Shown: positions 4,528-27,029 of the stretch, piece by piece | Layout: the number at the start of each line of letters is the position of its first letter | Numbering within the stretch: the first letter of the stretch is position 1 | Sequence record: OM937123.1 | Length of the DNA stretch: 39,173 bases | Reading direction: 5' to 3' (one strand) | Source of the DNA: Escherichia phage CY1 | The notes under the pieces: generated by a model | Databases searched by the model: none | The model's input: the letters and a program-made list of their open reading frames with translations, nothing else | Told to the model about the DNA's origin: nothing | Translations under genes and position numbers: made by a program

Positions 4528-6726
4528 ATGTCCACGATTACACAATTCCCTTCAGGAAACACTCAGTACAGGATTGAGTTCGACTACCTAGCCAGAACGT
4601 TTGTTGTTGTTACGCTGGTGAATAGCTCTAACCCTACCCTGAACCGTGTACTGGAAGTTGGTCGAGATTACCGATTCCTTAATCCAACGATGATTGAGGT
4701 GTTGGTTGACCAATCAGGTTTCGACATCGTTCGTATTCACCGTCAGACTGGAACTGACTTAGTGGTAGACTTCAGGAATGGCTCAGTGTTGACAGCTAGT
4801 GACCTTACCAATGCAGAGCTTCAGGCTATCCATATTGCAGAAGAAGGTCGAGACCAAACGGTTGACTTAGCGAAGGAATATGCAGATGCTGCTGGTAGGT
4901 CTGCTGGCAACGCTAAGGATAGCGAGGACGAAGCACGACGAATCGCTGCTAATATCAAGGAAGCTGGTCTAATTGGCTATATTACACGTCGCTCCTTCGA
5001 GAAAGGCTTCAACGTTACAACATGGAACGAGGCCCTGCTATGGGAAGAGGATGGTCATTATTACCGCTGGGACGGTGAACTTCCTAAAACCGTTTCTTCT
5101 GGATCAACCCCAGAGACTGCTGGTGGTGTTGGCCTTGGAAAGTGGCAACTTGTTGATGTTACTGATGTGTTGCGTAAAGATCTTGCAGGGTCTGAGGGGG
5201 CAAAATTAGTTTACGATGGCGATACGTCTGTTAGCGACAAACTTGCGGATTTAACAAGTCACGCCTTAAGCGGTTATTCAGTCATACAAAATGATGTCTA
5301 CAGGATTGCGTCCACCGCAAATTCCTTAGATTTTAACCTCTCAGTTGTAATTACTGGCGACTCCCTGAGCTTTAATGGTGTTGGCTATCCCGAAACATTT
5401 GCTGTCAATTATGCTGGGTATGCAACGGATCAGCCATTCGGTTTAAGCTCATGGTCTTATCTTCTGCGAGACGCGATCTTCACAGCGACTCCGGCATATA
5501 AAAACATCTTTGATATTCCATGGCTATCTGATGCTTCGGTATCTGGTTCCCCTGTTAGTGATTTGAAGAACCTCGGGCTTAATGGGAAGGCACTAAAATG
5601 GACGTTCGCGGAAGGTCAGTCGTTAAGTCTTTATAATGACTACCCCGGAACACCAGCGATTATTGTTTCAAAGGCTCCTGCTGCCAGTGCTGTAAAATTC
5701 AACATTGGCGGCGTGGAGTTTAACAATACATCAGTTGATGGTCTCTATCAGTCCAGTGAATACATGCTGATTCCGCTTGATAATAACTACTATGAAATAA
5801 CAATTAAAAACGTAAGAAACGCGCAAACAAATGCTCCAGGAGGGAGTCTTACCGTATACGGTATTACGCATGCAGGCAGAACATGGCCGAGGATCACAGG
5901 TAAAGGTGGGTGGACATCAGGGCAGATCCTGTCAGAGTTTGGAACGCTTGTAACTCCGTACTCACCTGATGTCATTTTCTATATCATCGGGGCTAATGAT
6001 ATTGGTCTTGGTGTTCCTGTTGCAGATTTCAAAAGCAATGTCGAAGCCTTCGTTCAGCAAGCGAGAGCACTAAAAAGCGACTCCATAATTGTTTTGATGT
6101 CAACGCCTCCAGAGCAGAGTTTGCCTTACCAGACAATCAAGCCTTACATTGCAGCGATGAAGGACATTGCAATTCAGTATAAATGCTCTCTCATCGATTT
6201 GTATGAAGCTATGCGGACATTAAACCCTAATTACTACAGGTTTGATAATATCCACTGGAAAGCAGCTGGTGATAACTTTGTCTATAACTACATCAAAGAA
6301 AAAATCATTCCAACGCTTAACAACAGCACTTTTGACCCGACAAGGGAGGCGTACACTGGTGCTGGCGGACTGGCTGGAAAACGTGCATCTCAAACATTTA
6401 ATGTTAGCGTTACTGCATCTGCTACAACGCCGACCAAGTCTAACGGAGGATATATTGAACCATATATTACGGCGTATTACTCAACCAGTCACGGAATTGT
6501 AAACCTAAACATTAAGGCTCCAGTAGGGTTTAAGATATCTAGCTTTTCATATCTTCCCGATACAATCGGATGGGGGAAGAGGGTGATACTCTCTGCATAT
6601 AACGATGCGGATTATCAGGAGGCTCTTTTTTCGCTTATAGATAATGCTACTAACAACCCTGTAAGTATTGATGGCACAGATGCGAAAGTAATTGTGACAA
6701 TCACAAGGGATGAAAGTAAAATATAA
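4528..6726 (+). CDS. gp17: Tail fibre protein (gp17 homologue) with T7-like N-terminal anchor and a C-terminal GDSL/SGNH hydrolase-like domain
   Basis: SD AAAGGAGG. The N-terminal ~150 aa resemble the T7 gp17 tail-attachment domain. Downstream, SGNH motifs are visible: GDSL (ITGDSLSF, nt ~5356), GxND (IIGANDIG, nt ~5989) and DxxH (FDNIHW, nt ~6241). Confidence 0.9.
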
Positions 6727-7807: not shown

Positions 7808-9567
7808 GTAAAGACTTAGTGGCGCGTCAGGCGCTAATGACTGCCCGTATGAAGGCAGACTTCGTGTTCTTCCTGTTCGTTCTATGGAAAGCTCTGTCAC
7901 TCCCAGTCCCGACTCGCTGTCAGATTGACATGGCGAAGAAACTATCGGCTGGGGACAACAGGCGTTTCATCCTACAGGCGTTCCGTGGTATCGGGAAGTC
8001 CTTCATTACGTGTGCCTTCGTGGTCTGGAAGCTATGGAATAACCCAGACTTGAAGTTCATGATTGTGTCGGCCTCAAAGGAACGAGCCGATGCGAACTCC
8101 ATCTTCATCAAGCGAATCATCGACCTCATGCCACAGCTTCAGGAACTCAAACCTAAGCAGGGACAGCGAGATGCGGTTATCAGCTTTGACGTTGGGCCAG
8201 CCAAGCCCGACCACTCACCTTCGGTTAAGTCCGTTGGTATCACTGGTCAGCTGACTGGTAGTCGTGCAGACATCCTGATTGCCGATGACGTTGAGGTTCC
8301 TAACAACTCTGCTACTCAGGCTGCGCGAGACCGTCTGTCAGAGCTTGTGAAAGAGTTCGACGCTATCCTGAAGCCGGGAGGTACAATCATCTATCTGGGT
8401 ACTCCTCAGAACGAGATGACCCTGTATCGTGAGCTTGAAGGTCGTGGGTATACCACTACTATCTGGCCAGCTCGTTATCCACGCGACAGGAAGGACTGGC
8501 AGTCTTACGGCGACCGTCTGGCTCCTATGCTTCAGGCAGAACTTGAAGAGGACCCTGAGTCCTTCTACTGGCGTCCGACCGATGAGGTACGATTTGATGA
8601 TACTGACCTGAAGGAACGTGAGCTGTCCTATGGTAAAGCTGGCTTCGCTCTACAGTTCATGCTTAACCCGAACCTTAGTGATGCCGAGAAGTACCCTCTG
8701 AAGCTCCGTGACCTTATCGTAGCAGACTTGGACCCAGCGTCCAGCCCAATGGTCTACCAATGGTTGCCGAACCCTCAGAACAAGCGTGAGGACGTTCCTA
8801 ACGTTGGACTCATGGGTGACTCGTACCACACGTATCAGACTGTAGGTTCTTCCTTCAGTTCGTACACCCAGAAGATTCTGGTCATTGACCCTAGTGGTCG
8901 TGGTAAGGATGAAACTGGTTATGCTGTACTGTATCAGCTAAACGGCTACATCTTCGCTATGGAAGTTGGAGGTATGCGTGGTGGTTATGAGGACTCTACG
9001 CTGGAATCACTGGCTAAGATTGGTCGTAAGTGGAAGGTCAACGAATACGTCATTGAGGGTAACTTCGGGGATGGTATGTACCTTGAGTTATTCAAGCCTG
9101 TAGCGGCCCGTATTCATCCTGCTGCTGTAACTGAAGTGAAGAGTAAGGGTCAGAAAGAACTCCGCATCTGTGACGTTCTGGAGCCTATCATGGGGTCTCA
9201 CCGACTTATCGTCAACGCTGCTGCTATCGTCCAAGACTACCAGTCGGCCTCTGATAAGGATGGTGTTCGTAACCCTATCTACTCTCTCTTCTACCAGATG
9301 ACACGTATCTCTCGTGAACGTGGAGCCTTGGCACACGATGACCGACTTGATGCGCTGGCTATCGGTGTACAGTTCTTCGTTGAGTCTATGGCTAAGGATG
9401 CCAACAAAGGCGAACGTGAAGTCACTGAGGAATGGCTGGAGGAACAGATGGAGAACCCACGGAAAGGCTTCGAGTCCATCCACACTGAGTTCTGGGACAA
9501 TGGGGTCCGGGTAACTCACGATACGGACGACGAGCTTGGACTAGGGGCTTACGTTGCGTTCCACTAG
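7804..9567 (+). CDS. gp19: Terminase large subunit (gp19 homologue), 587 aa, TTG start
   Basis: Strong similarity to T7 gp19 ([84 protein letters not shown]). TTG at 7804 follows AGGAGGT with 6-nt spacing. Confidence 0.95.
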
Positions 9568-9576
9568 CTGAATGAA

Positions 9577-9625
9577 TAACTATAGGTGAAATCTGCATGA
9601 ATACGCAGTTAGTAACCTATAGTTA
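9577..9625. other. Perfect 10-bp inverted repeat (TAACTATAGG / CCTATAGTTA) just after the terminase stop
   Basis: Arms at 9577-9586 and 9616-9625 are exact reverse complements; each arm resembles a half phage promoter. Confidence 0.5.
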
Positions 9626-9661
9626 CTACCAGTCTAACCTACTGTTTTACAAGGAGTTTGG

Positions 9662-9684
9662 ACTTAACTATCACTATAGGAAAG
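9662..9684 (+). promoter_or_regulatory. Phage RNAP promoter (phiOR-like, before gene 19.5), +1 near 9679
   Basis: TTAACTATCACTATAGGAAAG matches the in-window consensus. Confidence 0.8.
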
Positions 9685-9864
9685 ACCCCCGGTTACTTAT
9701 AGTATTACTGTAGTGAATATACATATGCAGACTTTATGCAAGACCTTAGGAGGCAGACTCCGAGTTCTTACCTAAGGCTTGCACCGATGGAAGGAGGGTG
9801 ATATTAATCATAATCCCTCCAATACAGATAGTCACCGACCATAGATACAGGAGGTATGTAGCAT

Positions 9865-10023
9865 ATGGCAAAGACCAAAGCTGTACTTAAAGCTCTGGCG
9901 ACCAATCGAGCTACATACAGGTTTCTTGCTGCTGTTCTACTTGCTGCTGGCGTTACTGCTGGAAGTCAGTGGGTCGGGTGGGTCGAGACTCTCGTATGCT
10001 CTCTGGTGTCTCAGTGTAATTAA
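9865..10023 (+). CDS. gp19.5: gp19.5-like small protein, 52 aa (below the ORF-track cutoff)
   Basis: My translation MAKTKAVLKALATNRATYRFLAAVLLAAGVTAGSQWVGWVETLVCSLVSQCN resembles T7 gp19.5 (..RVTYRFL..). SD AGGAGGT upstream. Confidence 0.65.
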   Translation: MAKTKAVLKALATNRATYRFLAAVLLAAGVTAGSQWVGWVETLVCSLVSQCN

Positions 10024-10186
10024 CGCAATCATGGTAACGATTCATGAGCGGAAGACCTAAGGTCAGTACGTGGATAAATACTCACTCTACTGACCTTAGC
10101 TACTGTAGTCAAGGACTTTAGGTAACACCTTAATAGAAGCTCACTTAGGGTCATCCTACTTATTGGTCTATCCTAGTGTCGCCTGA

Positions 10187-10224
10187 CCTACGGTCCTTGA
10201 CCTACAGTAGCTGCCACCTACAGT
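10187..10224. repeat. Array of three short direct repeats (CCTAC[A/G]GT) near the genome end
   Basis: Copies at 10187, 10201 and 10217. Analogous to the CCTAAAG-type arrays flanking the T7 terminal repetition. Confidence 0.6.
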
Positions 10225-10485
10225 CTTCGATGAGTTTTGGACCAAAAGTTTGAGACCACATCTCATAGTTCAAGAACCTCAAGTCTCCCCATAGGCCCTC
10301 TTTCAGTCCAGACAAAGGCCCTACCATAGACCTTCGGTCTATACCTCTAGTCTATCATAGGGTTGGACCGACTGTCAATACCTAAAGTCAACGATTGGTC
10401 ATGACTATTGGTGGTGGTGGAGACGATAGGTTGGGACTATTGGTCTGTCTCCAGTCTCTATCTGTATAACCATAGGTCCCATCAA

Positions 10486-10583
10486 CCTACAGTCTAACAA
10501 CCTACAGTCACCGACCATCGGTAGAGCCATTACCTACAGTCAAAGACCTACAGTCTAACGACACTAAGCTATCGACCTACAGT
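10486..10583. repeat. Array of five short direct repeats (ACCTACAGT-type) near the genome end
   Basis: Copies at 10486, 10501, 10533, 10547 and 10576, spaced 14-32 bp apart. Confidence 0.65.
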
Positions 10584-10936
10584 TTACAGAGACCTTAGGT
10601 CTAGTCTCAAAGGTTATCACATCCGGTCAGTTTATCAGTCAGAGACCATAGCTGACTAAAGTTATTAGTTAGTGTCTTTCTAACTGGACTTTCTATTATC
10701 CATAGTCAGGACTTAAAGTCAATCATCTGGAGTCATCCTTATATAGTCACTGGACTACTGTATAAATTACCATGATAAATAGTTGTTGACACTTTAGGTC
10801 TAACTATGGCTTAATAGCTTCCGTCAACACGACACGGCAACAACCGGATAGTGAAGACGCCGGGTCAGACCGGATAAGTAGTCAGCCTGTAAGACATACG
10901 AAAACCAGGCATCTGACAGGAAGTTGAAATAAACGC

Positions 10937-10966
10937 TTGACAAGATGTAACGACTTAAAGTAGTAT
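10937..10966 (+). promoter_or_regulatory. Host sigma70-type early promoter (T7 A3-like): TTGACA, 18-bp spacer, TAGTAT
   Basis: TTGACA at 10937-10942 and TAGTAT at 10961-10966. The surrounding sequence resembles the T7 A2/A3 region (TTGACAACATGAAGTAA...). Confidence 0.55.
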
Positions 10967-11037
10967 GTACCACATAGAAACAACGGTGAGTCCCAACACT
11001 GAAACGGGATAGCACGGCGACGACAGCCAATGCGAAT

Positions 11038-11140
11038 GCTCTTTAACAATCTGGATAAACTCTTAATGTGCGCCGATAGCGACTAACTACAGGGTCTTTG
11101 AGTCTACATCTGAAGGCCCTGACTGATAGTCACTAACAAC
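11038..11140 (+). ncRNA. Probable RNase III processing region upstream of gene 0.3 (R0.3-like)
   Basis: CTCTTTAACAATCTGGATAAAC closely matches the T7 R0.3 leader (GCTCTTTAACAATCTGGTAAATAGC) as I remember it. The structure was not folded. Confidence 0.4.
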
Positions 11141-11155
11141 TGAGAGGATATAACT

Positions 11156-11665
11156 ATGGAACGTAACGCTAACGCTTATTACGAACTGGTAGCTGCAACT
11201 GTGAAAGAATTCAACGAGCGCATCCAGTACGACCAACTGACTCAAGATGACGACTACAGCGATGCACTGCATGAAGTCGTAGGCGGTCAGGTTCCGCACT
11301 ATTACCACGAGATTTTCACTGTAATGGCTGCTGATGGTATAGGCCACGAGTTTGAGGACTCTGGGCTGATGCCTGAGACCAAGGACGTAACGTGTATACT
11401 GCAAGCTCGCATCTATGAGGCGCTGTATAACGATGTGCTTAACAGCTCGGATGTTGTCTGGTTTGAGGCTGAAGAGAGCGACGAAGAGGATGAATATTGG
11501 GTAGTTGACGCTAAAACAGGCGCAATAATTAAGCAAGCTGTGTCACTTGATGTCGCTACTGCATGTGCCAAAGATCACTATGCGATAGGTCGCCACCTGA
11601 AGGTCGAGGACATCAACGATAAAGTAGTGTTCGACCCTGCGGCTGAAGAGGGGGGCTGCGAATAA
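11156..11665 (+). CDS. ocr: Ocr-like DNA-mimic anti-restriction protein (gene 0.3 homologue) with a ~55-aa C-terminal extension, 169 aa
   Basis: [43 protein letters not shown] matches T7 Ocr ([43 protein letters not shown]); acidic tract follows. T7 Ocr is about 117 aa. Confidence 0.85.
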   Translation: [169 protein letters not shown]

Positions 11666-11820
11666 TGGTAACTTACGGTCTATGCCAGCACCACGTCACC
11701 TACGCCCGGCTTATGGTCAAGACCGGGCAGTTAACCCACGATGCGGCTATGCGTCACCTGAAAGTGGTCTACGAAGTACGAAAACATATGCACGACAGTT
11801 TGCACGCTGAGGACAAGTAA
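11665..11820 (+). CDS. Hypothetical early protein, 51 aa (gene 0.4 position)
   Basis: ATG overlaps the ocr stop (TAATG); + strand early region. Below the ORF-track cutoff; my own translation. Confidence 0.35.
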   Translation: MVTYGLCQHHVTYARLMVKTGQLTHDAAMRHLKVVYEVRKHMHDSLHAEDK

Positions 11821-11822
11821 AC

Positions 11823-11948
11823 ATGTACCAGATAACTTATAGCAGTGAACAGGCGTTCTATGATGGGTGCTACGAGATGATGAAGCGAGGGGCTTGCTAC
11901 GTGGCGAATCACCATGCGTTAACCATAACGCTGACAGGTGGATACTGA
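11823..11948 (+). CDS. Hypothetical early protein, 41 aa
   Basis: ATG 3 nt after the previous stop; + strand; my own translation. Confidence 0.25.
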   Translation: MYQITYSSEQAFYDGCYEMMKRGACYVANHHALTITLTGGY

Positions 11949-12019
11949 GTGAGAGACGAGAGGTCATCTAACTGATAGGTGGCCTCAAAGATTATCACTT
12001 AAATTGATAGGAGTTAACT

Positions 12020-12109
12020 ATGGACATAGGTTACTGGGTGTGCTTATCTCCGGTCATCTTTCTGATAGCTTGGGGACTTCTGGACGCAATCAAGCGAGGG
12101 TCATTCTAA
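12020..12109 (+). CDS. Hypothetical small hydrophobic early protein, 29 aa
   Basis: SD AGGAG with 6-nt spacer; translation MDIGYWVCLSPVIFLIAWGLLDAIKRGSF; stop overlaps the next start (TAATG). Confidence 0.35.
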   Translation: MDIGYWVCLSPVIFLIAWGLLDAIKRGSF

Positions 12110-12306
12110 TGAGCTGGATACTTCTGGCTATTTTAGGCTATGGACTTATCGCCTACGTGCTGGTGAGAGACATCAACAAAGCGCGTAAAGTCTACAAATT
12201 CAACTATGCACGTCTGGGTCGCTGGACTGTGCGTCAACCTAACGGACGATTCATGCGCAACCTCGCGAACGTCTGGGATATAGCAACCTTAGGGAGTAAA
12301 CTGTAA
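12109..12306 (+). CDS. Hypothetical early membrane protein, 65 aa
   Basis: N-terminal hydrophobic segment SWILLAILGYGLIAYVLV; same frame as listed ORF 12004-12306, whose TTG start lacks an SD. Confidence 0.45.
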   Translation: MSWILLAILGYGLIAYVLVRDINKARKVYKFNYARLGRWTVRQPNGRFMRNLANVWDIATLGSKL

Positions 12307-12566
12307 TGAAAACCGTATACACTCACAAATCATCAAGCCGTAGCCGCATGGAGCAAGTACAGCGCGATATGTTCCTACAGAGACGCATGAGAGCAGAAGG
12401 GCATAAGTCTGAGCTGATGTGTCTGGCGTATGGTGGACGACCAATCACCGACGACGGTAAACTTCTGGTCTCAGGCTGGAAGGCGATAGACCAACGGTCA
12501 ACCATCAAGCACACGACTCATGGTGACTTCAGTAATCTTCACGCTAACCCACTGATATGCAAGTAA
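12306..12566 (+). CDS. Hypothetical early protein, 86 aa
   Basis: ATG overlaps the upstream stop; + strand; no recognised homology. Confidence 0.5.
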   Translation: MKTVYTHKSSSRSRMEQVQRDMFLQRRMRAEGHKSELMCLAYGGRPITDDGKLLVSGWKAIDQRSTIKHTTHGDFSNLHANPLICK

Positions 12567-12571
12567 TTCTG

Positions 12572-12594
12572 ACTTAACTATCACTATAGGACTC
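12572..12594 (+). promoter_or_regulatory. Phage RNAP promoter directly upstream of the RNAP gene, +1 near 12589
   Basis: TTAACTATCACTATAGGACTC is a perfect consensus core, 75 bp before the gene 1 start. Confidence 0.75.
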
Positions 12595-12663
12595 AAGGTC
12601 TAAGACTCCAAGTGAAAGACCGAAGAGACTTTAAGTGAAAGACTAATAACAAGGACTTTAAGT

Positions 12664-15345
12664 ATGAGCGTCATCTCTATTGACAAACACGACTTCTCTG
12701 ATGTGTCGAACGCCATTGAGCCGTTTAACCTGCTGGCTGACCACTATGGGCAAGACCTTGCAGTCAAACAGCTTCAGCTTGAGCACGAGGCATACACTGA
12801 AGGCGAGCGACGTTTCATCAAGAACCTTGAGCGCCAGACTGAGCGCGGGGAACTGGCAGACAATCAGGTCGCCAAGCCTTTGATGCAGACTCTGGTCCCT
12901 AAGATTGCACAAGCCGTTAGGGAGTGGCATGAAGGGCCGGACGGGAAGCTGTCAACCTCTCGTCCTAGCGTAGCGTTCACCATGTTGAGCACTGAAGAGA
13001 AGGCCATCAAGGACCGCTCTCTGCGCATCTCCTGCGAGTCTGCTGCGGTTATCATACTGAAGGTCATTCTCTCCAAGCTGGTCAAGCCTGAAGGGATACC
13101 GATTACACCGATGGCCTCCGCGATAGGTCGCACACTTGAAGATGAAATCCGCTTCGGTAGAATCCGAGACAAGGAGCAGGAGCACTTCAAGAAGGCGATA
13201 GCTGAGAACCTGAACAAGCGAGCTGGTGCATCCTATAAGAAGGCCTACATGCAAGCGGTTGAGACCTCCATGCTGGAGCAAGGACAACTGGAAGATGCGT
13301 GGGGTACTTGGAGTCCGACCGAGGCGGTACACGTTGGCATCAAGATGCTTGAGATTGTCATACAGTCTACACAACTGGTCGAGCTTAAGCGTTATGGTGC
13401 TGGCAATGCAGCGGCTGATGTTGAGATGGTCCACCTGTCAGACTTCTGGGTCAAGAAGATGGCACAACGTGGATTCAGCCTTGCGGGTATCGCGCCAGTC
13501 TATCAGCCTTGCGTCGTTCCACCTAAGCCGTGGACGGGTGTCGTAGGCGGTGGGTACTGGGCCAAAGGTCGCAGACCCTTACCATTGATTCGCTTAGGGT
13601 CTAAGTCTGCGGTGGCACGTTACGAAGACGTATACATGCCTGAAGTCTATGACGCTGTCAACATCATCCAGAATACACCTTGGAAAGTGAACAAGAAGGT
13701 TCTGGACGTGGTGAACATGGTCGAGAAGTTGAACAACACGCCTATTGATGACATCCCTCAGATGGAGCCACTGAAGCCTGAGGACTATGCTGGTGAGACC
13801 GAGGAAGAGCTTAAAGCGTGGAAGAAAGCTGCGGCAGGTATCTATCGCCGAGAGAAGGCCAGGCAGTCGCGCAGGTTGTCACTGAGCTTTATCGTCAACC
13901 AAGCGAACAAGTTCTCTCAGTTCAAGGCCATCTGGTTCCCGTACAACATGGACTGGCGTGGTCGCGTCTACGCTGTGCCGATGTTCAACCCTCAGGGTAA
14001 CGACATGCAAAAGGGTCTCCTGACTCTGGCAGTCGGTAAGCCTATTGGTGCTGACGGTTTCAAATGGCTGAAGGTCCACGGTGCAAACTGTGCGGGTATT
14101 GATAAAGTAACCTTCGAGGAGCGCATCAAGTGGGTGGAAGATAACCACGACAACATCATGGCTGCTGCTAAGGCACCAATGGATAGCATTGAGTGGTGGG
14201 GTAAGTTAGACTCTCCGTTCTGCTTCCTAGCGTTCTGCTTCGAGTATGCTGGCGTAATGCATCACGGATTGTCTTACTCCTGCTCGCTGCCGATAGCTTT
14301 CGATGGGTCCTGCTCTGGGATTCAGCACTTCAGCGCGATGCTTCGTGACCACATCGGTGGACACGCAGTAAACCTGACGCCATCCGGTAAGGTCCAAGAC
14401 ATCTACCGCATTGTGTCTGACCGCATTGAGGAGGAACTCAAAGTCCTGCTGGTTAACGGTACGGACAACGAGATGGTGACTCACGAGGACAAGAAGACTG
14501 GTGAGATTACCGAACGTCTCAAGCTGGGGACACGAGAGCTGGCCCGTCAGTGGCTGACTTACGGTATGTCACGCAAGGTCACTAAGCGTTCAGTCATGAC
14601 TCTGGCCTACGGGTCGAAAGAGTATGGCTTCGCAGACCAAGTGTACGAAGATATAGTGATGCCAGCGATTGACTCAGGGTCTGGCGCTATGTTCACTGAA
14701 CCCAGCCAAGCATCTCGCTTCATGGCTAAGATGATTTGGGAAGCTGTTAGTGTGACCGTAGTTGCTGCGGTTGACGCGATGAAGTGGCTTCAAGGTGCTG
14801 CCAAGCTGCTGGCTGCTGAAGTAAAGGACAAGAAGACTGGTGAAATCCTGAAGCCTTGCCTTCCTGTACACTGGGTCACACCTGATGGTTTCCCTGTCTG
14901 GCAGGAATACCGCAAGAAGGATACCACTCGTCTGAACCTGATGTTCTTAGGGTCATTCAACCTTCAGCCTACCGTCAACAGAGGTTCGAAGAAAGAGCTG
15001 GACAAGCATAAGCAGGAGTCAGGCATTAGCCCGAACTTCGTCCACTCACAAGATGGTAGCCACCTCCGCAAGACTGTAGTCCACACGCACCGCAAGTATG
15101 GTGTGATGTCCTTCGCAGTGATTCACGATAGCTTCGGGACCATCCCGGCTGACGCTGAGTATCTGTTCCGTGGAGTCCGTGAGACAATGGTTGAGACCTA
15201 CCGCGACAACGATGTGCTGCTTGACTTCTACGAGCAGTTCGAATACCAGCTTCACGAGAGCCAGCGCGACAAGTTGCCTGAGCTTCCGAAGAAAGGTAAA
15301 CTGAATATCGAAGACATCTTGTCTTCAGACTTTGCATTCGCTTAA
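12664..15345 (+). CDS. gp1: Single-subunit DNA-directed RNA polymerase (T7 gene 1 homologue), 893 aa
   Basis: Extensive identity to T7 RNAP: FGRIRD, PCVVPPKPWTG, WFPYNMDWRGRVYAV, FCFLAFCFEYAG, DGSCSGIQHFSAMLRD, HDSFGT and the C-terminal FAFA. Confidence 0.97.
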   Translation: MSVISIDKHDFSDVSNAIEPFNLLADHYGQDLAVKQLQLEHEAYTEGERRFIKNLERQTERGELADNQVAKPLMQTLVPKIAQAVREWHEGPDGKLSTSRPSVAFTMLSTEEKAIKDRSLRISCESAAVIILKVILSKLVKPEGIPITPMASAIGRTLEDEIRFGRIRDKEQEHFKKAIAENLNKRAGASYKKAYMQAVETSMLEQGQLEDAWGTWSPTEAVHVGIKMLEIVIQSTQLVELKRYGAGNAAADVEMVHLSDFWVKKMAQRGFSLAGIAPVYQPCVVPPKPWTGVVGGGYWAKGRRPLPLIRLGSKSAVARYEDVYMPEVYDAVNIIQNTPWKVNKKVLDVVNMVEKLNNTPIDDIPQMEPLKPEDYAGETEEELKAWKKAAAGIYRREKARQSRRLSLSFIVNQANKFSQFKAIWFPYNMDWRGRVYAVPMFNPQGNDMQKGLLTLAVGKPIGADGFKWLKVHGANCAGIDKVTFEERIKWVEDNHDNIMAAAKAPMDSIEWWGKLDSPFCFLAFCFEYAGVMHHGLSYSCSLPIAFDGSCSGIQHFSAMLRDHIGGHAVNLTPSGKVQDIYRIVSDRIEEELKVLLVNGTDNEMVTHEDKKTGEITERLKLGTRELARQWLTYGMSRKVTKRSVMTLAYGSKEYGFADQVYEDIVMPAIDSGSGAMFTEPSQASRFMAKMIWEAVSVTVVAAVDAMKWLQGAAKLLAAEVKDKKTGEILKPCLPVHWVTPDGFPVWQEYRKKDTTRLNLMFLGSFNLQPTVNRGSKKELDKHKQESGISPNFVHSQDGSHLRKTVVHTHRKYGVMSFAVIHDSFGTIPADAEYLFRGVRETMVETYRDNDVLLDFYEQFEYQLHESQRDKLPELPKKGKLNIEDILSSDFAFA

Positions 15346-15360
15346 CAGCAGGAGAAGTAT

Positions 15361-15591
15361 ATGTCAATGAAACTTGTAGCACACAACAAGGCATTCAACG
15401 ATGGGTCAGGACGTTGCCATGTAGAGCTTACTTATAAGGATTTAGTCATTCTCCGAGACAGATTACAAGCAGGTGTGACTGGGTGGATTCAACCTAACGA
15501 GTACAGCCTTATAGCTTCGATTGATGAAGTGCTTAAAGCGTGGATGGAAGACGAGCGCACTCAATATCCGTCATTCCCTAGTATTAGATAA
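15361..15591 (+). CDS. Hypothetical protein, 76 aa
   Basis: SD GGAGAAG; + strand; no recognised homology. Confidence 0.5.
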   Translation: MSMKLVAHNKAFNDGSGRCHVELTYKDLVILRDRLQAGVTGWIQPNEYSLIASIDEVLKAWMEDERTQYPSFPSIR

Positions 15592-15601
15592 GGAGAGAGT
15601 T

Positions 15602-15817
15602 ATGAATTTTGCACACAAGCAGGCTGGAGTTAAGGGTGGGACTCAAATCGTGACCGTAACAGAACACAACGGCAAGGGTCTGGTGAAGACCACGGTCATT
15701 CCTACCGAAATGTCAAAACAGCTTAACGTCCCATTCAAGACCCTCGTCCATCTTGTGGAATCAAGTCACGAGAAATACCTGAAAGACGCAGTGTCCAAGC
15801 TGGAGCAGACCAAATGA
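15602..15817 (+). CDS. Hypothetical protein, 71 aa
   Basis: SD AAGGAGAG before ATG 15602; the track's 15521 ORF shares this frame but overlaps the upstream gene. Confidence 0.5.
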   Translation: MNFAHKQAGVKGGTQIVTVTEHNGKGLVKTTVIPTEMSKQLNVPFKTLVHLVESSHEKYLKDAVSKLEQTK

Positions 15818-15891
15818 CATGCCTACAGTTACTGGCCCTGTGGATGGGAGCACTAGCAGTATTCACTTTAATCCAACGCAGAAGAGGTTAA

Positions 15892-15914
15892 CCTAAACTA
15901 TCACTATAGGATTA
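15892..15914 (+). promoter_or_regulatory. Phage RNAP promoter (phi1.1-like), +1 near 15909
   Basis: CCTAAACTATCACTATAGGATTAG matches the consensus. Confidence 0.8.
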
Positions 15915-15958
15915 GACTCAAGGTCATGACTCAAAGTCGTGGCCTTCATGATTAACCC
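15911..15958 (+). ncRNA. RNase III-type processing hairpin (R1.1-like)
   Basis: ttagACTCAAGGTCAtgactcaaagtcGTGGCCTTcATGATTaac matches the recurring element and resembles T7 R1.1. Confidence 0.55.
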
Positions 15959-15990
15959 TAACATAACGTAAACTACTGGAGATTTAACAA

Positions 15991-16171
15991 CATGTATCAG
16001 AACACTATCAACTTCGAGCGCATCCGTGAACGTCAGAAGACTGAAGGTTACATTCCGAAAGGCCGTAAGCTGAACAAGACCAAGCGAGGTGGTGGTGTCA
16101 AGGGTGCTTTCCGTAACGCTGAAGGTAAAGACTCCATGGTCAACCAAGAGAAATACTTCGTAGGAGCATAA
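15991..16171 (+). pseudogene. gp1.1: Gene 1.1 homologue interrupted by an apparent single-base frameshift
   Basis: ATG 15991 gives MYQNTINFER then HP-stop. The next frame continues ...IRERQKTEGYIPKGRKLNKTKRGGGVKG...VGA to 16171 and contains the T7 gp1.1 motif GRKLNKTKR, but has no start codon. An extra C in GAGCGCCATCC near 16018-16021 would explain this. Confidence 0.5.
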
Positions 16172-16175
16172 CGCT

Positions 16176-16433
16176 ATGGGCCGACTTTATAGTGGCAACC
16201 TAAACGCTTTCAAAGCAGCGTGTAACAGGCTCTATCAGTTAGACTTCTGCGTGATACAGCAGGATTGGTACGATGCGCATCTTCGGAAAGAGTGCATGAG
16301 ACTTCAAGTAGAGGACCGAGCTGGTAACATCTTCGCGCTTAAGACCTTCGCACACCGCGATGAAGACGTACTGTACAACACTGCAACAGGCTTCCTTAAC
16401 TGTCTCGCTAACCAACTCGACACATGGAGATAA
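16176..16433 (+). CDS. gp1.2: gp1.2 homologue (T7 host dGTPase inhibitor family), 85 aa
   Basis: MGRLYSGNLNAFKAACNRLYQLD... matches T7 gp1.2 (MGRLYSGNLAAFKAATNKLFQLD...). Confidence 0.85.
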   Translation: MGRLYSGNLNAFKAACNRLYQLDFCVIQQDWYDAHLRKECMRLQVEDRAGNIFALKTFAHRDEDVLYNTATGFLNCLANQLDTWR

Positions 16434-16437
16434 CACA

Positions 16438-17514
16438 ATGACAACTATTAAAACCAACCCGCACCGCGCTGTAGATTACTCTGAGTCTGGCATTAAGAAG
16501 GCACTGGAAGCAGCCGGGTCTCTGGAAGCTGAAGTGAAGTACGATGGTGTGCGACTAAACCTACCTGTATTCCCTACTGGTGAGACTCAATGGTTAAGCC
16601 GTGAGTCTAAAGAGCTTCCAGCGCTTCAGCATCTGAAGTCAGAACGTGGGAGTCCTACAGAATTAACAAACTGTGGAGACTGGCGCTGGTTCCTGAAGCA
16701 AGTAGGGCATGAAGTCTCTGGCCTGATGATTGATGGCGAGGTCATGGTTCCTGCAACCGACTTCAACACTTCCTCAGGTCTAATCCGTACCATGTGGTCA
16801 GACACTAAGAACTACGCTTGGAATGGCAACCCAGATGCTGACATCGACACCAAGAAGAAGCATAAGGTTCCTTTCCATCTGGCAACCGACCACATCCGCG
16901 TGGTTGTCTACGGTATCGTTGACCTTAACGTCATCAACGACCCGAAAGCTGAAGGTCCTATCCATAGCGTCACACGCCTGAAGGCCGAAGCTATCGTCCC
17001 TCTCCTCCAGAAATACTTCCCGGAAATCGACTGGGTTCTGTCTGAGTCACACACGGTCTATGACCTTGAGTCGCTCAACTCCCTGTACGAACAGAAGCGT
17101 CTGGAAGGACATGAGGGTCTGGTAGTAAAGGACCCGCTGGGTAAATACAAGCGCGGCAAGAAGTCAGGCATGTGGAAAATGAAGCCAGAGGAGACCATCG
17201 ATGGAACTGTATGCGGTCTCGTGTGGGGGACTCCGGGTAAGGCCAACGAAGGTAAGGTCATTGGCTTCGAGGTGCTGCTTGAGGATGGCATGGTGGTTAA
17301 CGCATGCGGTCTTACTGAGGAGCAGAAGGATGAGTTCACCGCTTCCGTTCTAAACTGGCGTAAGGGGTTATGCTCAAGCACTATTTATGGAAACCCGTTT
17401 GCGGGTAATCAGGTGGAAGTCCTATTCATGGAGCGCTTCCCGGATGGCTCACTACGTCACCCTAGCTTCAAGTGCTGGCGCGGGACTGAGGACAATCCAA
17501 CCGTTAAGAGCTAA
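16438..17514 (+). CDS. gp1.3: ATP-dependent DNA ligase (gene 1.3 homologue), 358 aa
   Basis: MTTIKTNPHRAV..., catalytic KYDGVR, EGHEGLVVKDP, KSGMWKMKPE and DGSLRHPSF match T7 ligase. Start taken at ATG 16438 (SD GGAGA) rather than the listed 16360. Confidence 0.92.
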   Translation: MTTIKTNPHRAVDYSESGIKKALEAAGSLEAEVKYDGVRLNLPVFPTGETQWLSRESKELPALQHLKSERGSPTELTNCGDWRWFLKQVGHEVSGLMIDGEVMVPATDFNTSSGLIRTMWSDTKNYAWNGNPDADIDTKKKHKVPFHLATDHIRVVVYGIVDLNVINDPKAEGPIHSVTRLKAEAIVPLLQKYFPEIDWVLSESHTVYDLESLNSLYEQKRLEGHEGLVVKDPLGKYKRGKKSGMWKMKPEETIDGTVCGLVWGTPGKANEGKVIGFEVLLEDGMVVNACGLTEEQKDEFTASVLNWRKGLCSSTIYGNPFAGNQVEVLFMERFPDGSLRHPSFKCWRGTEDNPTVKS

Positions 17515-17525
17515 CTAAACGTCAA

Positions 17526-17557
17526 CCCAGTGGTCTTCGGACTGCTGGGTTTCTTTG
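17526..17557 (+). terminator. Rho-independent terminator after the ligase gene (T7 TE-like)
   Basis: Stem CCCAGTGGTC / GACTGCTGGG with TTCG loop followed by TTTCTTTG; same position as the T7 early terminator. Confidence 0.6.
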
Positions 17558-17597
17558 CTTTGTGCTAGTAAGCTATCGTCTGGGCCACCAGCCTGAC

Positions 17598-17620
17598 CCT
17601 AAGCTATCACTATAGGACAA
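17598..17620 (+). promoter_or_regulatory. Phage RNAP promoter (phi1.5/1.6-like), +1 near 17615
   Basis: CCTAAGCTATCACTATAGGACAA; one mismatch to the consensus (G for A at about -12). Confidence 0.7.
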
Positions 17621-17648
17621 CCATAACTTCGACCTAAGGAGGCCGACC

Positions 17649-17909
17649 ATGTTTAAGAACTTAATGTTCAATCGTTATACCAGTACCTTCCACATGTCCA
17701 ACAACCCGTTCGCTTGCATTAAGCGCAACGAGAAGCTGGGCTACTTCGGGAAGGCCGTTAAGCTGTCACCTACAGTCTACGCTCTGATTACTCCTGGAAA
17801 AGCTGAAGAGGCTCGCCAGAAGCGTGAGACCAACGTACCAGTGGTCTACACCAAGTGGCCTCGTGTTCGCCTGTTCATTGAGTTCGTGAAGGAGGTGGTA
17901 AATGGTTAA
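17649..17909 (+). CDS. gp1.6: gp1.6-like protein, 86 aa
   Basis: SD AAGGAGG; synteny between ligase and gp1.7. Family assignment is by position and size only. Confidence 0.6.
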   Translation: MFKNLMFNRYTSTFHMSNNPFACIKRNEKLGYFGKAVKLSPTVYALITPGKAEEARQKRETNVPVVYTKWPRVRLFIEFVKEVVNG

Positions 17910-18342
17910 GGCAGGAGATACCGTCAGATACGCAGGGCCTATAGATGCCCACTTAGGCCTACATGATGGTAAGGTGCTCGAAGTGTATCCTAAGTCCAGT
18001 ATCGTTAAGGTGCAATGGCCCGGACTAAGCAGTCCAGTTAAGCATTACGCAGAAGCACTAGTTATCACGAACCAAGTGAATGACAAACCTGAAGTCAAAG
18101 ATGATGGCGTCCGTAAGCCATCACACTATCAGGTCTTTGACGGTGTGGAATCCATTGAGATTATCGCCCGGTCCATGACTGTCAGCGAGTTCCGTGGTTT
18201 CTGCATGGGTAACGTCCTGAAGTATCGACTCCGAGCTGGTAAGAAGTCAGAGCTGGCGACTATGGAGAAGGACCTGAACAAATCAGCCTTCTATCAGGAG
18301 TTGTTCGACCTGCATAAAGGTAAGTGCTATGCTGCCGAGTGA
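17902..18342 (+). CDS. gp1.7: gp1.7-like nucleotide kinase (DUF3310 family), 146 aa
   Basis: C-terminal KPSHYQVFDGVESIEIIARSMTVSEFRGFCMGNVLKYRLRAGKKSELA..FYQELF..HKGKCYA matches T7 gp1.7 closely. Shorter than T7 gp1.7 (196 aa). Confidence 0.85.
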   Translation: MVKAGDTVRYAGPIDAHLGLHDGKVLEVYPKSSIVKVQWPGLSSPVKHYAEALVITNQVNDKPEVKDDGVRKPSHYQVFDGVESIEIIARSMTVSEFRGFCMGNVLKYRLRAGKKSELATMEKDLNKSAFYQELFDLHKGKCYAAE

Positions 18343-18420
18343 GTGGTGCGAGATGATGTTCGAGAAGACGGGTAACACCGATTACCTCGAAATGTACAAC
18401 CTCTGGAAAGGGAGAGGACT

Positions 18421-18588
18421 ATGACTATTTACCGTGGAATCTTCGGGTCCCTGTACGCAGTGAACCAGCACGGAGTCGTCTGCGTTAAGCCTAACGGAAG
18501 CGAGTGGCATGCATCACACTACAGTCTCGAAGGTTTCCAAGACGCTATTAATAAAGGTTACTTGACGGAGGTTGTAGATGACAACTGA
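18421..18588 (+). CDS. Hypothetical protein, 55 aa (gene 1.8 position)
   Basis: SD GGGAGAGG; my translation [55 protein letters not shown]; below the ORF-track cutoff. Confidence 0.45.
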
Positions 18589-18742
18589 GTCAACTGAGAA
18601 GAAATACATCGTGGAGCTTGAGGGTCGCGTTCAGTCCTTCGAGGTTCCGGTGTACGCAAAGTCTCTTGAAGAGGCTACCCTGAAGTCCCAAGAGTATGAG
18701 GACGCTGGGTTTGTGGTCGGACGGATTCGTCCTGAGACCTAA
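18578..18742 (+). CDS. gp2: Host RNA polymerase inhibitor Gp2 homologue, 54 aa (below the ORF-track cutoff)
   Basis: My translation [54 protein letters not shown] matches T7 Gp2 (SFEVPIYAETLDEA...GFEVTRVRP). SD GGAGG. Confidence 0.8.
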
Positions 18743-18759
18743 CTATCACTGTAGGACAG
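18737..18759 (+). promoter_or_regulatory. Phage RNAP promoter (phi2.5-like) with A-to-G change at -3, +1 near 18754
   Basis: CCTAACTATCACTGTAGGACAGA. Confidence 0.6.
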
Positions 18760-18798
18760 ACGTCCAGTTCGTAACTTTAAATTAGGAGATTTACACCA

Positions 18799-19497
18799 AT
18801 GGCTAAAGAGCAACTGAAGACTTTCACCACTCCGGTAGCTGGCATCGTTGAGCCTTACGCATGGCTGAACAAAGCAGACACCAAGTTCAACGAGCGTGGT
18901 GAACACAAAGTAAACCTGACATTCGACCTTAGCAACCCGAAGGTCCGCAAGATGATTGATGTCTTACAGAAGATTCACGACGATGCGTATGCGAAAGCAC
19001 TCGCAGACCACGAGAAGAACCCACCTCAGGTTCAGCGTGGCAAGAAGCCTATTGAACCACGAGAAGGCGACATGCCGTGGATTGAGAATGGTGATGGTAC
19101 TGTTACCCTGAAGTTTAAATGCTTCGCGTCTTACCTGAAGGATGGTAAGTCAGAGCCTATCGTATTACGGTTCTACGACACCGATGCTAAGTTAATCCGT
19201 GACGTCCCGAATATTGGCGCTGGCTCAAAGCTGAAGGTCAAGTTTAAAGTCCTACCATTCAAGTGGAACGCTGCGACTGGTGCAAGCATTAAGCTCCAGC
19301 TTGAGTCCTGCCTTCTGGTAGAACTGAAGGAGTGGAAAGGTGACGGCGCTGGTGGGGATGGTGGCTGGGGCGATGATGAAGACCTCGGCACTGGCTACAA
19401 AGCGTCAACCGATGGTGACTTCGGGTCTGATGACTTCGGTGACGATGGTTCCGAAGGTGGTGACGACTCCGGCTCTGGTGGCGATTACGATTTCTAA
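18799..19497 (+). CDS. gp2.5: Single-stranded DNA-binding protein (gp2.5 homologue), 232 aa, acidic C-terminal tail ending in F
   Basis: N-terminal MAKEQLKTFTTPVAGIVEPYAWLNKADTKF pattern and Gly/Asp-rich tail ...GGDYDF are typical of T7 gp2.5; SD TTAGGAG. Confidence 0.9.
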   Translation: MAKEQLKTFTTPVAGIVEPYAWLNKADTKFNERGEHKVNLTFDLSNPKVRKMIDVLQKIHDDAYAKALADHEKNPPQVQRGKKPIEPREGDMPWIENGDGTVTLKFKCFASYLKDGKSEPIVLRFYDTDAKLIRDVPNIGAGSKLKVKFKVLPFKWNAATGASIKLQLESCLLVELKEWKGDGAGGDGGWGDDEDLGTGYKASTDGDFGSDDFGDDGSEGGDDSGSGGDYDF

Positions 19498-19949: not shown

Positions 19950-20173
19950 TGACTCAAGAAGTTAAGGTCGTTCGTAAGCGTCTGACCATTGATAAAATCC
20001 CGGTAGGCTATGCGTTTATCGTCCACGGTAAGCCGGGTGAAGTGTACGTGAAGATTAGCAACTCTCACGTCTTCAACCACAAGTTGCTCCAGATGCACAC
20101 CACGGATGCTAACCGCTTCCAAAGTCATCTTAACCTCGTAGCTGTAGAGCTGGTGGTGTACGATGGTGAGTAA
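19946..20173 (+). CDS. Hypothetical protein, 75 aa
   Basis: Start overlaps the gene 3 stop; + strand; no recognised homology. Confidence 0.5.
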   Translation: MMTQEVKVVRKRLTIDKIPVGYAFIVHGKPGEVYVKISNSHVFNHKLLQMHTTDANRFQSHLNLVAVELVVYDGE

Positions 20174-20621
20174 GGTTCAGTTCAACCCACGGTCCCGTAC
20201 TGAAGCTATCTTCGTTCACTGTTCGGCTACCAAGCCAGATATGGACATAGGTGTAGAGACCATACGTATGTGGCACAAGCAGCAAGGCTGGCTGGACGTA
20301 GGCTACCACTTTATCATCAAGCGCGATGGAACTGTGGAAGAGGGTCGCCCGGTCAATGTAGTAGGGTCACACGTTAAGGACTGGAACTCCAAGTCTGTAG
20401 GCGTCTGCCTTGTAGGTGGAATCGACGCCAAGGGTCAGTTTGAAGCTAACTTCACTCCAGCCCAGATGAACGCCCTGCGAAACAAGCTGGCTGACCTGAA
20501 GGCCCTGTATCCTCAGGCAGAAATCAAAGCACATCATGACGTAGCACCGAAGGCGTGTCCCAGTTTCGACTTGCAACGCTGGTTGACTACCAACGAACTG
20601 GTCACTTCCGACCGAGGCTAA
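20163..20621 (+). CDS. gp3.5: N-acetylmuramoyl-L-alanine amidase (T7 lysozyme, gp3.5 homologue), 152 aa
   Basis: AIFVHCSATKP, WLDVGYHFIIKRDGTVEEGR, VGVCLVGGID, HHDVAPKACPSFDL and NELVTSDRG are near-identical to T7 lysozyme. Confidence 0.95.
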   Translation: MVSKVQFNPRSRTEAIFVHCSATKPDMDIGVETIRMWHKQQGWLDVGYHFIIKRDGTVEEGRPVNVVGSHVKDWNSKSVGVCLVGGIDAKGQFEANFTPAQMNALRNKLADLKALYPQAEIKAHHDVAPKACPSFDLQRWLTTNELVTSDRG

Positions 20622-20644: not shown

Positions 20645-20860
20645 ATGATTAAACTTATCGAATTTCTTGGTCGTCTGGCGGTGCGTGGTTATCGTCGTGC
20701 TGCGGTACTGGAACGAAAGGTAGAAAAGAAGACTGCTGATGGTGCGGCTGATGCTGCTGCTCTGGCTGACAAGCTGACCATCGCGTCACTGGAAGCTGGC
20801 ATGAAGGCACGTCAAGCTGAAACCAAAGCTGACCAGTTGGCTCAGTTCTTCAAAGCCTAA
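20645..20860 (+). CDS. Hypothetical coiled-coil protein, 71 aa (gene 3.8 position)
   Basis: SD AAGGAGAA before ATG 20645; same frame as listed ORF 20555-20860. Confidence 0.5.
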   Translation: MIKLIEFLGRLAVRGYRRAAVLERKVEKKTADGAADAAALADKLTIASLEAGMKARQAETKADQLAQFFKA

Positions 20861-20878
20861 ACTATCACCTTAGGGATG
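20856..20878 (+). promoter_or_regulatory. Degenerate phage-promoter-like sequence upstream of gene 4 (two mismatches in the core)
   Basis: CCTAAACTATCACCTTAGGGATGG; the -4/-5 positions differ from the consensus, so activity is uncertain. Confidence 0.35.
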
Positions 20879-20925: not shown

Positions 20926-22629
<1,704 letters not shown>

Positions 22630-26968: not shown

Positions 26969-27029
26969 TTAGGACCTAAGATATGACTATAAGATAGACT
27001 TTAGTCTTAACTTAAAGAGGAGATTCAAG

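Follow-up and report, generated by a model that had tools for sequence, protein, structure and literature searches.

The window, that is, the whole 39,173-nt stretch of DNA analysed (OM937123.1), corresponds to a circularly permuted genome of the genus Kayfunavirus (K1F-like, T7 family) with a T7-like gene order. Gene 1, coding for a single-subunit RNA polymerase (RNAP) of 893 residues, is located at 12664..15345 on the plus strand (PHROG RNA polymerase, E=0) and is preceded by a gp0.38-like early ORF of 86 aa (12306..12566, plus strand, phrog_7066), named gene 0.38 or 0.42 in EcoDS1 and CR44b. The 97-nt gap from the stop codon of this ORF to the ATG of gene 1 holds a putative phage-RNAP promoter, ACTTAACTATCACTATAGGACTC (12572..12594, plus strand, positions -17 to +6), whose position -17 comes 5 nt after the stop codon, and the 72-nt 5' leader of gene 1 (12592..12663, plus strand). 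In the early region, PHROG matches also identify Ocr (11156-11665) and two small early ORFs. On the downstream side, the DNA ligase gene (16360-17514, PHROG match) is followed by an intrinsic terminator with a 12-bp stem and a T run (17524..17551, plus strand); in T7 and T3 the terminator TE occupies the same position, and the element of the window is likely the end of the early transcription unit of the host RNAP. Also, a gp2-like inhibitor of host RNA polymerase (18578..18742, plus strand, phrog_1307, E = 5e-24) and a gp3.5-like amidase homologous to T7 lysozyme (20163..20621, plus strand, phrog_822, E = 1e-80) are present. From the role of T7 lysozyme, we take the latter to be a candidate negative regulator of the phage RNAP.

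The left end of K1F aligns near window position 10261, and CTCTATCTGTATAACC at 10456-10471 matches the concatemer junction annotated in EcoDS1 at the end of its 178-bp terminal repeat. In this part of the window (10261-10475), the terminal repeat is apparently single-copy, suggesting that two copies were collapsed in the assembly. Just inside the left end, the segment 10186-10595 contains an array of at least six copies of ACCTACAGTC, and a similar (acctacagtcaac)3 repeat is annotated in CR8. The reverse complement of the array unit, GACTGTAGGT, resembles positions -6 to +4 of the CACTGTAGGA promoter variant, pointing leftward. The best sigma-70-like candidate for an early promoter (TTGACA-18-TAGTAT, 10937..10966, plus strand, consensus scan only) corresponds in position to the annotated cluster of host promoters of EcoDS1 when the left end is mapped at about 10261. 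The 1.5 kb around the gene 1 site, used as a query, retrieves 216 phage records from GenBank; Escherichia and Salmonella phages, along with Kayfunavirus-named records, make up most of them, and the best are about 93% identical. Among the records similar to this region are MT350292 (Enterococcus phage EFA-1), OR786095 (Staphylococcus phage MBBL139) and PV615262 (Acinetobacter phage vB_Aba_01KA), with identities of 84-98% that vary with the query; such hosts are not expected for a Kayfunavirus, and the labels may reflect contamination or mislabelling.

The sequence-only reading had placed a perfect copy of the phage promoter core 75 bp before the RNAP start codon. The exact 18-mer TTAACTATCACTATAGGA is indeed found at 12574-12591 on the plus strand, and the predicted start, G12589, lies 75 nt before the RNAP ATG at 12664. 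The word perfect is accurate for the 13-nt core CTATCACTATAGG (-11 to +2), which is matched exactly, but not for the full 18-mer, which deviates from the majority form at -14. The majority form in the window is the published K1F consensus (quoted in the annotation of MZ726794), (A/C)CTAAACTATCACTATAGGRAAA, reading TAAAC..., and hence the site at 12574 has T for A at -14; the exact 18-mer occurs only twice in the window, at 9664 and 12574. Moreover, the initially transcribed sequence is GGACTC at this site versus GGRAAA or GGGAGA, positions +4 to +6 being non-consensus. The T at -14 and these last positions may affect the strength of the promoter. The GGA start and the non-consensus +4 to +6 would resemble T7 class II rather than class III promoters, and the capsid promoter alone reads GGGAGA in the window.

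With up to three mismatches to the 18-mer allowed, ten matches are found in the window, all on the plus strand, and 0.00 are expected (100 shuffles). A 23-nt weight matrix derived from the other nine sites gives 33.3 bits to the site at 12572-12594, and leave-one-out scores across the promoter set span 22.5-36.7 bits; elsewhere in the window, the highest values with the same matrix are 23 (a weak site at 20858), 14 and 3 bits. The ten copies, placed ahead of ORFs or in the spaces between them, follow the promoter map of T7: they precede the genes for the tail fibre, ssDNA-binding protein, scaffold and capsid, come after the terminase gene, gene 1 and TE, and occupy further T7-like spots. The site shares with the phage-RNAP promoters of the T7 group (Studiervirinae) a match to the multi-copy consensus of its genome, a CACTATAGG-type core and G at +1, the orientation and intergenic position, a cognate RNAP with a loop fitting -12 to -8, and conservation accompanied by co-change. 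Going upstream from 12574 on the circular map, the sole phage promoter is a phiOR-like copy after the terminase gene (9664..9681, plus strand, 18-mer match). No phiOL-like copy is found between the left end of the genome and gene 1, where the matrix maximum is 3.1 bits across 9700-12570, and the site itself is not in the left-end position of a phiOL, being about 2.3 kb inside the left end (~10261) and downstream of early genes.

The next member of the promoter set after gene 1 is a phi1.1-like promoter at 15894-15911 (element 15894..15953, plus strand). Directly after it, at 15915-15953, a canonical RNase III-type hairpin of the T7 group is observed, GACTCAAGGTCATGAC TCAAA GTCGTGGCCTTCATGATT; a comparison with T3 R0.3, R0.5, R1.1 and R1.3 shows it to be closely like the annotated R0.5 and R1.1. 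Outside the promoter set, the weak promoter-like sequence TAAACTATCACCTTAGGG at 20858-20875 (23 bits, two core mismatches) lies about 55 nt before a 566-aa ORF at 20929, which by its size and its position in the T7 gene order is probably the primase/helicase gene, and the site may be a weak class II promoter. A weaker match of 14 bits has its predicted +1 at 26992.

The leader carries a Shine-Dalgarno sequence, AAGGA, at 12651-12655, 8 nt before the ATG of gene 1, a small predicted hairpin, CUC/GGUCU...AGACC/GAG (12592-12627), and a segment, CTTTAAGTGA (12629-12638), partly complementary to promoter positions -8 to +2. It begins with ACTCAAGGTC, the 5' half of canonical RNase III sites of the T7 group; the corresponding 3' half (GTGGCCTT.ATGATT; motif AAGGTC...GGCCTT) is absent from the leader, and the predicted hairpin is weak. 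The folding energy of the leader is no better than that of shuffled sequences (z = 0.43 and -0.06), and an Rfam scan of 9500-19000 with E up to 1 gives zero matches. The scan finds no terminator-like site between the promoter and gene 1 (12572-12664), and the class II T7-RNAP pause signal ATCTGTT does not occur in the leader. Because the promoter faces gene 1 and neither a terminator-like hairpin nor ATCTGTT lies between them, any initiation at the site must yield gene 1 mRNA. ATCTGTT, the core of the T7-RNAP class II pause and termination signal, is found at 15161-15167 on the plus strand, inside the RNAP gene at its 3' end; with three copies in the window versus 5.6 expected, this occurrence is probably due to chance. 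The ribosome-binding context AGGACTTTAAGTATG is identical for gene 1 of the window (12650-12666) and gene 1.1 of T7 (~5992-6010). Also, four occurrences of GACTYYAAGT-related motifs are found in the leader, and ACTTTAA is similar to 'epsilon', a translational enhancer in the leader of T7 gene 10.

The RNAP of the window shares 98.8% identity with its counterpart in K1F, which is the type member of the genus, and has the specificity loop of K1F over the segment equivalent to the graft of Temme et al. The K1F loop grafted into T7 RNAP gave an enzyme active on a T7 promoter carrying the -12 to -7 consensus of the K1F subfamily (PMC3458549), and polymerase/promoter pairs of the K1F type serve as orthogonal expression parts (PMC3458549, PMC12218169). 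Among the relatives, the loop reads RLNLMFLGSFNLQ in the CTAT group versus RLDLMFLGTFRLQ in the CCCT group. The loop of the CCCT group is T3-like, with RLDL...FRLQ and not RLNL...FNLQ, having Asp at T7 position 748 and Arg at 756. With the loop aligned to T7 739-770 (window about 14890-15000), Asn at both positions accompanies CTATCACT promoters, and the Asp/Arg pair accompanies CCCTCACT promoters. The phages with Asp/Arg (SFP21B and L052) are close relatives, their RNAPs being 86-88% identical, and the change at 748 and 756 means that promoter specificity has switched naturally and recently inside a single genus.

A comparison with related phages, one of the checks that the sequence-only reading had called for, reveals a matching site 63-82 nt before gene 1 in all 33 relatives inspected whose RNAP N-terminus is at least 65% identical. 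These comprise 26 IMG/VR sequences and EcoDS1, CR44b, Dev2, IME278, SFP21B, Kc166A and ASO2B from GenBank. In K1F (NC_007456, 2476-2493), the identical 18-mer lies 73 nt before gene 1, counted from the 3' end of the motif. A 161-nt query spanning the region is covered by at least 80% in 220 of the 221 matching GenBank records, mostly with 95-99% identity, and the matches of the 1.5-kb query, which is mostly coding, are mostly at 90-95%. Over 30 distinct sequences, the nucleotide diversity is 0.082 for promoter positions -17 to +3 and 0.065 for the core (-12 to +2), compared with 0.051 at RNAP codon positions 1+2, 0.165 in the leader from +4 to the ATG, 0.27 at RNAP third codon positions and 0.32 at third codon positions of the upstream ORF. 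In its diversity, the promoter is close to non-synonymous codon positions. In the sequence available before the RNAP genes of SP6 and of four distant relatives (L055-L058), the promoter-core pattern is not matched.

Moreover, the site changes together with the promoters of each genome. In SFP21B, L050, L052 and L054, the other promoters read CCCTCACT (TTAAACCCTCACTATAGG), and the same version is found before gene 1. In CR8, the other promoters read GGTACACT (AAGGAAGGTACACTATAGG), and in Kc166A the early promoters read CACTGTAGG; again, the copy before gene 1 has the version of its own genome. For the SFP21B group, CR8 and Kc166A, the gene 1 site scores within the promoter range of its own genome. 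The site co-varies with the promoter consensus of each phage and, for the CTATCACT and CCCTCACT types, also with the specificity loop of the RNAP. Selection as a promoter is supported by the presence of the site in relatives, its low diversity, the activity of the grafted K1F loop and, most strongly, this co-variation. A site that tracks the polymerase in this manner would not be one kept solely for another purpose. Two lineages argue against this reading. In the Dev2 lineage (Dev2, 2386-2452; IME278; L044-L049), the gene 1 promoter reads CACTAAAGG, with an A at -2 that is absent from the other listed promoters of those genomes and a score of 24.9 bits, near the bottom of the genome range. In ASO2B, the site has T at -3 and was not marked as a promoter by the annotators of that genome.

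The novelty implied by the sequence-only reading does not hold, since EcoDS1, CR44b and CR8 already carry an annotation of this promoter. In EcoDS1 (NC_011042), 'promoter phi' (2244-2266) lies directly before gene 1, and its 23-mer is identical to that of the window. A 'predicted promoter' is annotated at the corresponding site of CR44b (HG818823, 1814-1836), and CR8 (HG818824), with its own promoter version, has an annotated promoter at 3356-3378. In K1F (NC_007456), the site is unannotated, its 18-mer being identical to that of the window. In all four phages, as in the window, the site lies in the gap that separates gene 1 from the gp0.38-like ORF, and the leader is the same. EcoDS1, CR44b and K1F belong to the same genus as the window, Kayfunavirus, and CR8 is a Caroctavirus. 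The site of the window is the orthologous element in another isolate, with nothing materially different from the annotated relatives. It is an already annotated, genus-wide feature and not a discovery, and the idea of feedback is already proposed for phage LUZ100. In the literature searched, no discussion of the regulatory meaning of this promoter was found, and no transcript 5'-end, start-site or transcriptome data for a Kayfunavirus. The papers on Citrobacter phage SH, KBNP1315, Kvp1 and Hafnia phage Ca are silent on the site, and the 2026 paper on phage Sparklingdew gives, uncommented, a promoter repeat in the gene ahead of the RNAP gene, at its 3' end.

The contrast drawn by the sequence-only reading with T7, where gene 1 was said to be transcribed only by the host RNAP, is overstated, because T7 has a phage promoter, phiOL, upstream of the early region. 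In T7, T3, K11 and BA14, phiOL is upstream of gene 1 on the same strand, so that in principle gene 1 could be transcribed by its own product, and it is the first phage promoter to enter the cell; it follows the terminal repeat and precedes the host promoters, at 350-500 nt from the left end. The real difference from T7 is distance: phiOL lies 2.6-2.8 kb before gene 1 in these four phages, whereas the site of the window lies 75 nt before it and 2.3 kb from the left end. Also, T7, T3, K11 and BA14 have no phage promoter directly before gene 1, whereas in EcoDS1, K1F, CR8 and the window the proximal promoter is present and phiOL is missing, none being annotated in EcoDS1. In T7 and T3, the same intergenic slot, adjoining gene 1, contains a minor E. 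coli promoter, C, and an RNase III site, R1; that of the window holds a phage promoter and not a sigma-70 promoter of the T7/T3 style, and the R1-like 3' half is absent. A textbook simplification is thereby corrected: in T7-family phages, gene 1 is generally preceded by a phage promoter at some distance, and this distance varies with the genus.

Two known systems have the same arrangement as the window. Dubendorff and Studier reportedly built, in 1991, a synthetic T7 autogene in which T7 gene 1 is placed behind a T7 promoter. This circuit is that of the window, a single-subunit RNAP gene behind its own promoter and started by an outside polymerase; however, the T7 autogene is an engineered plasmid, whereas the window has a natural, conserved layout near likely inhibitors (the gp2-like and gp3.5-like proteins). 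Later uses of the T7 autogene are described (PMC6395690). In the Pseudomonas T7-like phage LUZ100, the phage-specific promoter phi1 lies directly upstream of the RNAP gene as in the window. Its start was mapped by ONT-cappable-seq, and the authors propose bootstrapping by the host RNAP followed by a positive feedback loop (PMC10134795). The start of phi1 is then experimentally mapped, whereas that of the window is predicted from the sequence.

The window has the layout of an autogene, a cognate promoter upstream of the RNAP gene on the same strand with no terminator-like site between them. The wiring for positive feedback is present, given the common strand, the 75-nt leader with its Shine-Dalgarno sequence, the lack of a terminator-like site in the scan and the conserved, co-varying site, and self-transcription of gene 1 would follow from this layout. 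The promoter is almost certainly functional. We consider it probable that the site is a functional promoter for the phage's own RNAP, orthologous to the annotated sites of EcoDS1, CR44b and CR8, and that it would close a positive loop on gene 1. According to this model, the host RNA polymerase would start at the early sigma-70 promoters near the left end (best candidate 10937-10966) and, reading across Ocr and the small early genes, continue into gene 1, giving the first polymerase molecules. These would recognize the 23-bp site at 12572-12594, initiate at G12589 and transcribe the 75-nt leader, gene 1 and then the downstream middle genes, closing the loop. Synthesis of RNAP mRNA would continue after the gp2-like protein shuts off the host RNA polymerase and, by analogy with T7, the loop would later be damped by the lysozyme-like gp3.5. 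In K1F-like phages, the proximal promoter would then replace phiOL as the first phage promoter entering the cell. The sequence match, position, conservation and co-variation of the site are observed, and from them we infer initiation at 12589, as well as the strength and timing of the promoter and the physiological weight of the feedback. Conservation indicates use as a promoter but does not establish self-amplification of the RNAP as the selected benefit. Moreover, T7 itself thrives with no proximal promoter, and moving gene 1 behind T7 promoters reportedly gave T7 variants of no higher fitness; both points count against the model.

A real promoter could also be kept for the roles of a phiOL, self-transcription of gene 1 being a by-product. 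As the site would be the first phage promoter to reach the cytoplasm, such roles would include the takeover of genome entry by the fast phage RNAP once it is made; the priming of replication and the processing of concatemers late in infection are further candidates. The replication origins of T7 consist of phage promoters followed by AT-rich DNA, and the annotated T3 origin comes after phi1.05, both consistent with a role in priming. Also, phiOL (T7, T3, K11 and BA14) and the proximal promoter (EcoDS1, K1F, CR8 and the window) look like alternatives to each other, and entry of the T7 genome is coupled to transcription (PMC3737178). Nonetheless, the promoter of the window is 2.3 kb inside the genome and after the early genes, unlike the left-end phiOL. 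This explanation is the main rival but rather unlikely; phiOL-type roles and feedback are not mutually exclusive, and the sequence does not separate them. A promoter-like sequence that arose by chance or decayed and lacks activity would agree with the deviations at -14 and +4 to +6 and with the site having been left unmarked in ASO2B. However, zero matches are expected by chance, and the site scores 33 bits versus at most 23 outside the promoter set. Its diversity is also as low as that of non-synonymous codon positions, and it changes in step with RNAP specificity across lineages, which makes an inactive sequence extremely improbable.

A different proposal is that the sequence is conserved mainly as RNA, positions -10 to +2 being the 5' arm of an R1-like RNase III hairpin in the host read-through transcript and the match to a promoter being secondary. 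T7 and T3 have R1 exactly at this position, and in four sequence types the minimum-free-energy folds of the read-through RNA show (T)ATCACT paired with AGTGA(A/T)A, which lies about 50 nt further downstream. Moreover, in the Dev2 lineage a perfect 11-bp complementarity, TATCACTAAAG/CTTTAGTGATA, is found 45 nt downstream, reached by 0 of 1000 shuffles and including the T-to-A change at -2. Against this, the complementarity in the window and K1F type is of 5 bp and is reached by 479 of 1000 shuffles, the duplex energy being reached by 100 of 1000; folding energies are no better than those of shuffles, no Rfam family is matched, and CR8 and L052 are without such pairing. Also, a constraint on the RNA only would not make positions -12 to -8 track the RNAP specificity of each phage. 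We regard this proposal as very unlikely. For the window type, the promoter was rejected as an R1-like 5' arm, the pairing being at chance level in the window and K1F, the SFP21B type, L052 and CR8. Pairing between promoter and leader is borderline in Kc166A (43 of 1000 shuffles) and significant only in the Dev2 type (0 of 1000). In this comparison, the hairpin arms were compared directly between sequence types, as the MAFFT alignment set the 3' arm out of register.

The helix of the Dev2 lineage may serve as a processing hairpin confined to read-through RNA made by the host polymerase. Promoter positions -10 to +1 would be the 5' arm of the 11-bp helix in the host-made transcript only, and then gene 1 mRNAs of host and phage origin would differ in how they are processed, in their stability or in their translation. 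A broader scenario would be that Kayfunavirus and Caroctavirus gave up an ancestral left-end phiOL and gained a promoter joined to the leader of gene 1, that is, a natural autogene, and that at least the Dev2 type acquired with it a two-stage switch of RNAP expression absent in T7; we consider this doubtful. A swap from phiOL to a proximal promoter with differing leaders would be of moderate interest if shown.

The wiring of the polymerase to its own promoter is under purifying selection and follows the changes of specificity, and it bears on models of infection timing and on phage engineering, since the proposed loop would be broken by removal or relocation of the early region. Kayfunavirus phages are common candidates for therapy.
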